Shown here one piece after another: positions 34,100 through 34,507 of a stretch of DNA of 36,317 bases. A model generated the notes under the pieces. The model was given only the letters and a program-made list of their open reading frames with translations. It ran no database searches and had not been told where the DNA came from. Numbering within the stretch: position 1 is the first letter of the stretch; each line of letters starts with the position of its first letter. This stretch comes from a virus (taxonomy: Duplodnaviria; Heunggongvirae; Uroviricota; Caudoviricetes). Made by a program: the position numbers and the translations under genes. Location of the stretch: the IMG/VR virus record IMGVR_UViG_2617270990_000004; one strand, 5' to 3'.

Positions 34100-34392
34100 A
34101 AGAACTGAATAACCTGAATGATTTACGCTCAATCAGAGCGATGATGATTGGCAGTAATTAGCGGTCAATTTCGGTTTTTTTGGCTGTGCGCTCCCCGCCC
34201 AGCATTGCGCGTCAATTAGCCCCAAAAAAACGAAAAAGTTACAATCAAGTAAAAAATTCCTTCTGCAAAACTAAAAAAGATTTCAATAAAATCAGACAGT
34301 TAAAAACATAAAAAAAAGTACAAAAAAACATCTCAAAGTCTTGTTTTTTGCTTCAAATACAATTGGTTATTGTGTTTTTTGAAACCTACCAG
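34100..34392 (+). other. prophage right-end arm (attR P-arm candidate), AT-rich with phased A-tracts
   Basis: Non-coding, strongly AT-rich stretch with many A5-A8 tracts directly abutting the ompW 3' segment. Confidence 0.45.
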
Positions 34393-34507
34393 TGTGGTAC
34401 ATGGATATCGATACCACCGCCAATTATAAGCTGGGCGGTGCACAGCAACACGATAGCGTACGCCTCGATCCGTGGGTGTTTATGTTCTCAGCAGGATATC
34501 GTTTTTA
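34393..34507 (+). other. ompW: 3' terminal segment of ompW (last 38 codons) at the prophage-chromosome junction (attR core region)
   Basis: Encodes VWYMDIDTTANYKLGGAQQHDSVRLDPWVFMFSAGYRF-stop, recognised as the OmpW C-terminus. The upstream reading frame does not continue as ompW. Confidence 0.8.

Follow-up and report, generated by a model that had tools for sequence, protein, structure and literature searches.

A probable attR junction of a lambda-like prophage in the 3′ end of Escherichia coli ompW

Introduction

Where exactly does a prophage end when its last bases lie inside a host gene, and what becomes of that gene? This question is raised by the right-hand part of the IMG/VR record IMGVR_UViG_2617270990_000004, a stretch of 36,317 nucleotides that we call the window, in which phage DNA gives way to the last codons of ompW. 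The original prediction, made from the letters of the window, held that a prophage had integrated into the 3′ end of ompW and that the right attachment site lies at this point. Having compared the locus with related genomes, we put the probability at about 95% that a lambda-like temperate phage integrated site-specifically in the 3′ end of ompW and that the window shows its P-O-B′ junction, attR.

Targets of this kind have been described. Phage 21 and the element e14 integrate within the 3′ end of icd and supply a diverged substitute for the 3′ end that they displace. Their integration into icd is cited by Bobay (2013; PMC3603311), who names icd, ompW and lepA as integration targets and, citing Creuzburg (2011), counts ompW among the most occupied hotspots. 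Prophages in ompW were characterized by Nakamura (2021, PLoS Pathog; PMC8112680), who described the lambda-like PPompW prophages, flanked by attL and attR of 121 bp, and determined their attP by sequencing PCR products from excised circles. The GenBank records of PPompW (LC567822 and related entries) carry two 121-bp copies labelled "duplication due to insertion of PPompW".

Materials and Methods

The region 33800-35100 of the window served as a megablast query against 5,426 complete E. coli genomes. As the attB reference we used the uninterrupted ompW-yciE locus of strain INSC1002. Strain 600029, which is 99.8% identical to the window over 33400-36317, including the IS1 element, was taken as a proxy for the other end of the prophage. 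An attP of 648 nt was rebuilt in silico by joining the P arm of the window through the core to the P′ arm of strain 600029.

Results

The Prophage Ends at a Defined Nucleotide Within ompW

The whole megablast query was matched in 599 genomes, which thus contain the same prophage end. For the genomes with an uninterrupted ompW, the match starts at query position 591, corresponding to 34390 in the window. Direct alignment with the ompW-yciE locus of INSC1002 gave the same nucleotide: identity is complete from 34390 rightward, and leftward there is no similarity to ompW. The segment 34390-34510 is identical to the ompW 3′ end of INSC1002 at all 121 positions, and identity of the INSC1002 type extends past ompW through yciE, yciF and yciG, which bears out the claim that an intact 38-codon ompW remnant is followed here by the yciEFG operon. 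Identity to attB begins at the very start of the 121-bp ompW 3′ segment, as in other ompW-integrating prophages, and 34390-34510 aligns column by column with the repeat_region annotated in LC567822.1. The right boundary of the prophage can thus be fixed at 34389/34390. The coordinates of all features are collected in Table 1.

Table 1. Features of the window and of the P′ arm; positions refer to the window unless preceded by L006.
Feature	Position	Strand	Basis or remark
IS421/IS186-like element, IS4 family	1-1200		Transposase ORF 33-1151 on the minus strand; terminal repeat ends at 1200
Lambdoid prophage body	1201-34389	+	97.3% identity over 1200-24995 to ompW prophages, e.g., Ecol_AZ161
tRNA-Arg(TCT)	1238-1314		IS421-like element abuts the prophage just upstream
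Full tfa gene	32162-32746		Part of the patchwork right end
Class I SAM-dependent methyltransferase	32801-33469		Strand opposite to tfa
Second tfa copy, truncated	33526-33795
DUF4376 pseudogene remnant	~33892-34161
AT-rich non-coding phage P arm of attR, 227 nt	34163-34389	.	G+C content; no PGAP gene in matching genomes
Candidate arm-type integrase site (P1-like), TCTGCAAAAC	34262-34271	+	Repeated decamer; conserved in three diverged P arms
Candidate IHF site, AATCAGACAGTTA	34290-34302	+	Exact match to WATCARNNNNTTR
att duplication, attR copy, 121 bp	34390-34510	+	Original chromosomal ompW 3′ end; 121/121 to attB
Common core, 28 bp, CAGTGTGGTACATGGATATCGATACCAC	34390-34417	.	Identical in attB, attL and attR
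Orphaned ompW 3′ remnant, GTG + 37 codons + TAA	34392-34508	+	ORF translation VWYMDIDTTANYKLGGAQQHDSVRLDPWVFMFSAGYRF
Native hairpin between convergent ompW and yciE	34522-34544	.	Stays with the remnant at attR
yciE	34568-35074	-	ORF; annotation of identical sequence; bacterial B′ flank
yciF	35120-35620	-	ORF; annotation of identical sequence; bacterial B′ flank
yciG	35706-35885	-	ORF; annotation of identical sequence; bacterial B′ flank
IS1, left end GGTGATGCTGCCAACTTACTG	35924-36317		InsA ORF 35979-36254; runs past the end of the window
Three tandem TCTGCAAAAC copies, P′ arm	L006 14030-14063		Exact matches in the reconstructed attP

The remnant of ompW at this junction is presumably silent. 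By inspection, no Shine-Dalgarno-like sequence was seen before its GTG, and the equivalent stretch is labelled by PGAP as [quoted passage not shown] i.e., as a pseudogene. The native hairpin beyond its stop codon folds with -16.0 kcal/mol on the plus strand and -18.3 kcal/mol on the minus strand, and on the minus strand it forms a terminator-like site serving yciE. Farther into the chromosomal flank, an IS1 insertion, also present in strain 600029, separates yciG from trpA.

The locus was uninterrupted in 3,438 genomes of the collection, whereas for about 1,290 records the best match was a 371-nt attL-type chimeric ompW with 90-95% identity. We read these figures as an insertion or a remnant at ompW in about one in four complete E. 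coli genomes.

Strand Exchange Maps to a 28-bp Core

A three-way alignment left CAGTGTGGTACATGGATATCGATACCAC as the sole stretch common to attB, attL and attR. The attR sequence departs from attB to the left of 34390, and attL departs from attB to the right of the equivalent of 34417. Judged by these alignments, strand exchange must have taken place inside 34390-34417, since beyond the block attL has the phage-type polymorphisms and attR the chromosomal ones. The alignment against an uninterrupted ompW-yciE region, which had been suggested as a check, thus places the crossover within these 28 bp, and the core first proposed near 34393-34410 falls inside the mapped block.

The core contains a perfect dyad of 6 bp, GTGGTA at 34394-34399 and TACCAC at 34412-34417, the arms of which lie 12 nt apart and surround a near-palindromic centre, ATGGATATCGAT. 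Core-type half-sites flanking an overlap region, which we predict at about 34402-34409, would be expected to look like this. When the window was searched for a second copy of the core with up to three mismatches, the copy at 34390 alone was found. A repeat search of 34150-34560 returned mainly low-complexity A/T matches of no evident meaning.

The Other End in Related Strains Has a Full-Length Chimeric ompW

The window holds no attL, int or xis, and its left end is an IS element. In strain 600029, the prophage extends back to a complete ompW ORF, with int and xis directly after it on the opposite strand. Strain Ecol_AZ161 has the same attL layout, but its integrase is split by ISEc23. In both strains the ompW ORF at attL encodes 212 amino acids, which is the native length. 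In these relatives, going by the alignments, ompW is reconstituted at attL as a chimera: the 3′ end supplied in exchange preserves the full length of the 212-aa OmpW, a strategy also used at icd by phage 21 and e14.

The substitute comes from the phage, whose P′ arm opens with a diverged version of the final 93 nt of ompW. The attR and attL copies of the 121-bp segment are identical at 95 positions (78.5%). Comparison over 39 codon positions (38 codons and the stop) gave 22 identical codons, 10 synonymous differences and seven non-synonymous ones, so that the OmpW encoded at attL differs from the native protein at residues 185, 188 and 190-194, and ANYKLGGAQQHDS becomes AKYKSGVTTVKDS. The phage-type tail contains ACCACGGCTAAGTAC. 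Beyond the stop codon of the rebuilt gene, TCTGCAAAAC is repeated three times in tandem; a hairpin comes next, and then the 3′ end of int. Folded directly, this phage-supplied hairpin has a 12-bp stem with -14.4 kcal/mol (z = -6.5), and the U-run comes after it. A consensus terminator scan of attL found nothing, though direct folding gives this stem and U-run; we think that the scan missed the hairpin because its longest stem consumes the T-run.

Differences between the two ompW copies are unevenly spread. Their last 44 nt (34467-34510 compared with L006 13983-14026) differ at one position only, whereas the 50 nt preceding them are saturated with synonymous and non-synonymous changes. Such a mosaic pattern of the phage-borne copy could have come from gene conversion between copies or from constraint at the DNA level. 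Strain Ecol_AZ161 holds a third version of ompW in its attR remnant (L003 2030-2260, NZ_CP019012.1), with a five-codon insertion, DTEVKYKSNGAVLPAGRYSDNVRLDPW; this remnant directly adjoins trpA, and yciEFG is absent. This arrangement points to previous integrations and deletions at this site.

The P Arm Contains Candidate Integrase and IHF Sites

The DNA upstream of the remnant had been described as AT-rich, rich in A-tracts and non-coding, and this description holds. The G+C content is 32.6% at 34163-34389 and falls to 24% at 34244-34389, while the window as a whole has 53.5%; among segments of 227 nt, only 0.7% reach a value as low as that of 34163-34389. Counting tracts of 4 nt or longer, this segment has nine A-tracts and three T-tracts. 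It has no credible ORF, and PGAP annotates no gene there in matching genomes. Only one other stretch of the window, 2418-2628, is as AT-rich as the P arm, with a minimum of 28.6% G+C; it lies near an IraM-like ORF (2226-2561, minus strand), upstream of the SASA esterase gene.

The part of the P arm conserved among diverged ompW prophages covers about 130 nt (~34259-34389). Three diverged P arms, those of the window, PPompW_132418 and Ecol_AZ161, could be aligned from the TCTGCAAAAC motif to the core, and other prophage types (O55:H7, O157:H7 and related strains) share the window only from ~34244/34263 onward. Within the whole 36-kb window, the P-arm copy of TCTGCAAAAC is the sole 11-mer match with at most one mismatch. 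The reconstructed attP has four exact copies, all in a single orientation. Counted from the position where the core block begins, the P copy starts 128 nt upstream, and the three tandem P′ copies start 124, 135 and 148 nt downstream. We regard the decamers as candidate binding sites of the integrase.

A single exact match to the IHF consensus WATCARNNNNTTR was found in the 648-nt reconstructed attP, namely AATCAGACAGTTA, and the P′ arm yielded no exact match. The specified consensus positions fit in all three diverged P arms, the differences being at the R position and the first N. We regard 34290-34302 as a candidate IHF site. The proposal of this P arm as a candidate for binding by integrase and IHF is thus well founded and gains specific putative sites; its further element, phasing of the A-tracts, is weak. 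The AA/TT power in the arm peaks at 10 and 11 bp, a level that 8 of 2000 mononucleotide shuffles reach, and it dips at 10.5 bp. No 10-11 bp periodicity was found for the centres of the A-tracts in the arm. Helical phasing is not clearly supported, and we do not endorse it because the periodograms are ambiguous.

The Prophage Body and Alternative Readings of the Junction

The body of the prophage has the gene content of a lambdoid phage by Pfam and annotation: tRNA-Arg, a SASA esterase, lysis genes, terminase, an HK97-type head and a lambda-type tail, and further a tail fibre, copies of the tail-fibre-assembly gene (tfa), a methyltransferase and pseudogene remnants. The gene order matches that of strain 600029. 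The side tail fibre of 1042 aa (29034-32162) has an Ala/Ser/Thr-rich low-complexity region of ~350 residues, which yields long spurious ORFs in the other frames and on the opposite strand.

Does the junction belong to a phage that can still excise? A genuine attR could be a fossil, the mere scar of a defective and locked-in prophage that has possibly lost int or attL, and we give this somewhat less than even odds. An IS421-like element abuts the prophage at position 1200, and this junction occurs in no complete E. coli genome of the collection, so the left part of the prophage may be interrupted or rearranged in the source genome; a single IS insertion, however, need not eliminate attL. Signs of decay are also present near the right end, in the form of tfa and DUF4376 pseudogene fragments, and in the split integrase of Ecol_AZ161, and the PPompW prophages were called apparently defective by the authors who described them (PMC8112680). 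Against this, the head, tail and lysis genes of the window are long uninterrupted ORFs, and strain 600029, which agrees with the window at the right end and in the IS1 insertion, has an intact int and xis.

Two readings that deny an attR altogether have next to no probability. Phages of this group do carry an ompW-like segment of 121 bp, and the fragment in the window might have been such a phage-borne copy, with a separate complete ompW elsewhere in the chromosome; the attB, attL and attR alignments rule this out, as the copy in the window is the one that is fully identical to chromosomal ompW and runs unbroken into yciE, while the phage-borne version is only 78.5% identical and lies next to int at the other end. 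In line with this, no complete ompW including the fragment lies directly upstream, where a prophage of at least 33 kb with a single core copy is found instead. Equally remote is a cut through ompW by an unrelated deletion or IS rearrangement that happened to end beside a prophage, without site-specific integration: the region is rich in IS elements (IS1 from 35924, the IS421-like element at 1-1200), but the breakpoint falls on the same nucleotide in 599 genomes and also in diverged prophage types with only the P arm in common, the 28-bp core recurs at a reciprocal attL, and there is no IS end at the junction. Integration into the 3′ end of ompW, as originally predicted, is instead borne out by the attB/attL/attR alignment and agrees with the PPompW literature (PMC8112680).

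Discussion

Integrases with an arm-binding domain require arm-type sites. The integrase of strain 600029 belongs to this class: Pfam assigns it PF09003 (Arm-DNA-bind_1, E = 7e-22) and PF00589 (Phage_integrase), it matches the lambda Int structures 5j0n and 1z1b with E = 8.5e-56 over residues 14-375, and an Exc-family excisionase gene adjoins its own gene. Putting these elements together, we propose an attP of three parts. The AT-rich P arm is followed by the core, whose 28 bp match ompW codons 174-183 exactly, and this in turn by a P′ arm comprising the phage-type last 93 nt of ompW, three candidate arm-type sites, the hairpin with its U-run, and the end of int. An integrase of the lambda Int family with an arm-binding domain, presumably helped by IHF, would exchange strands in the core. 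At attL, as found in the relatives, chromosomal ompW codons 1-183 are joined to the phage tail, giving a 212-aa chimera with seven substitutions at 185-194. At attR, the junction present in the window, the original tail of 38 codons is stranded behind the P arm as a presumably silent remnant beside yciEFG.

The closest known counterparts are the PPompW prophages of STEC and EPEC, with the same insertion point in ompW and the same 121-bp duplication (window 34390-34510). Between the TCTGCAAAAC motif and the core, both have the P arm in conserved form, and the order at attL is likewise ompW, int, xis, here seen in 600029 and Ecol_AZ161; the att-int module is shared. Upstream of about 34259 the two are unrelated. 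At its right end, PPompW has a type III effector locus, nleG, as well as a secondary attB of 21 bp. The prophage of the window lacks both and has in their place a class I methyltransferase together with tfa fragments and a DUF4376 pseudogene; the secondary attB, GTCATGCAGTTAAAGTGGCGG, is absent from the window. The P-EibA prophage of ECOR-9 (AF151091.1) also resembles the window in its P arm, core and ompW tail, with 87% identity over 34262-34520, and differs in its cargo, as far as can be compared from a partial record of 11 kb.

The likeness to lambda lies in the recombination machinery. The integrase of 600029 is homologous to lambda Int over its full length, including the arm-binding N-domain, and the site combines a repeated arm decamer (one in P, three in tandem in P′) with a P-arm site of IHF consensus and a dyad-symmetric core. 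Unlike lambda, which uses an intergenic target between gal and bio, this phage has an intragenic one, its identity block measures 28 bp instead of 15 bp, and one P-arm decamer was found as against two in lambda. The P′ arm-type sites also differ in starting 124 nt after the first core-block base, because the ompW substitute lies in between. With phage 21 and e14 at icd, the prophage shares the use of the 3′ end of a protein gene as its target, the preserved length of the ORF, and the orphaned original tail at the far junction. The target gene and the core sequence are others, and the substitution affects an expected surface loop of OmpW and not a cytoplasmic enzyme. If what Bobay (2013; PMC3603311) says of these targets is meant to include ompW, it does not hold for the present att type, as it conflicts with the full-length chimeric ompW of 600029 and Ecol_AZ161.

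The junction itself is nothing new, as ompW is an already published and very common integration site. Fixing the boundary is mainly of use for annotation, and attR explains the "partial OmpW" pseudogene reported by annotation pipelines. Beyond this, the candidate arm-type, IHF and core sites would provide a concrete map for the study of the ompW integrase.

What does the exchange of the tail mean for the host? OmpW is a receptor for colicin S4, and in other genera for some phages. Going by the general topology of beta-barrel outer-membrane proteins, residues 185-194 should be the final extracellular hairpin, which joins strands 7 and 8. Since OmpW serves as a colicin S4 and phage receptor, a swap of this tail could alter the susceptibility or the antigenicity of the lysogen. 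It is tempting to speculate that the phage-borne ompW tail is no neutral patch but a form of lysogenic conversion acting through the rewritten residues 185-194, although we consider this unlikely. Resistance to colicin S4 by way of the swapped residues was considered and rejected: the residues of OmpW reported to contact the colicin, D116, H117 and E120 in the numbering of the mature protein, are outside the swapped segment (PMC5755745). Lysogens of this type are not ompW-null, since they make the chimeric OmpW, and if the tail did prove to act in lysogenic conversion, roughly a quarter of E. coli genomes would be affected.
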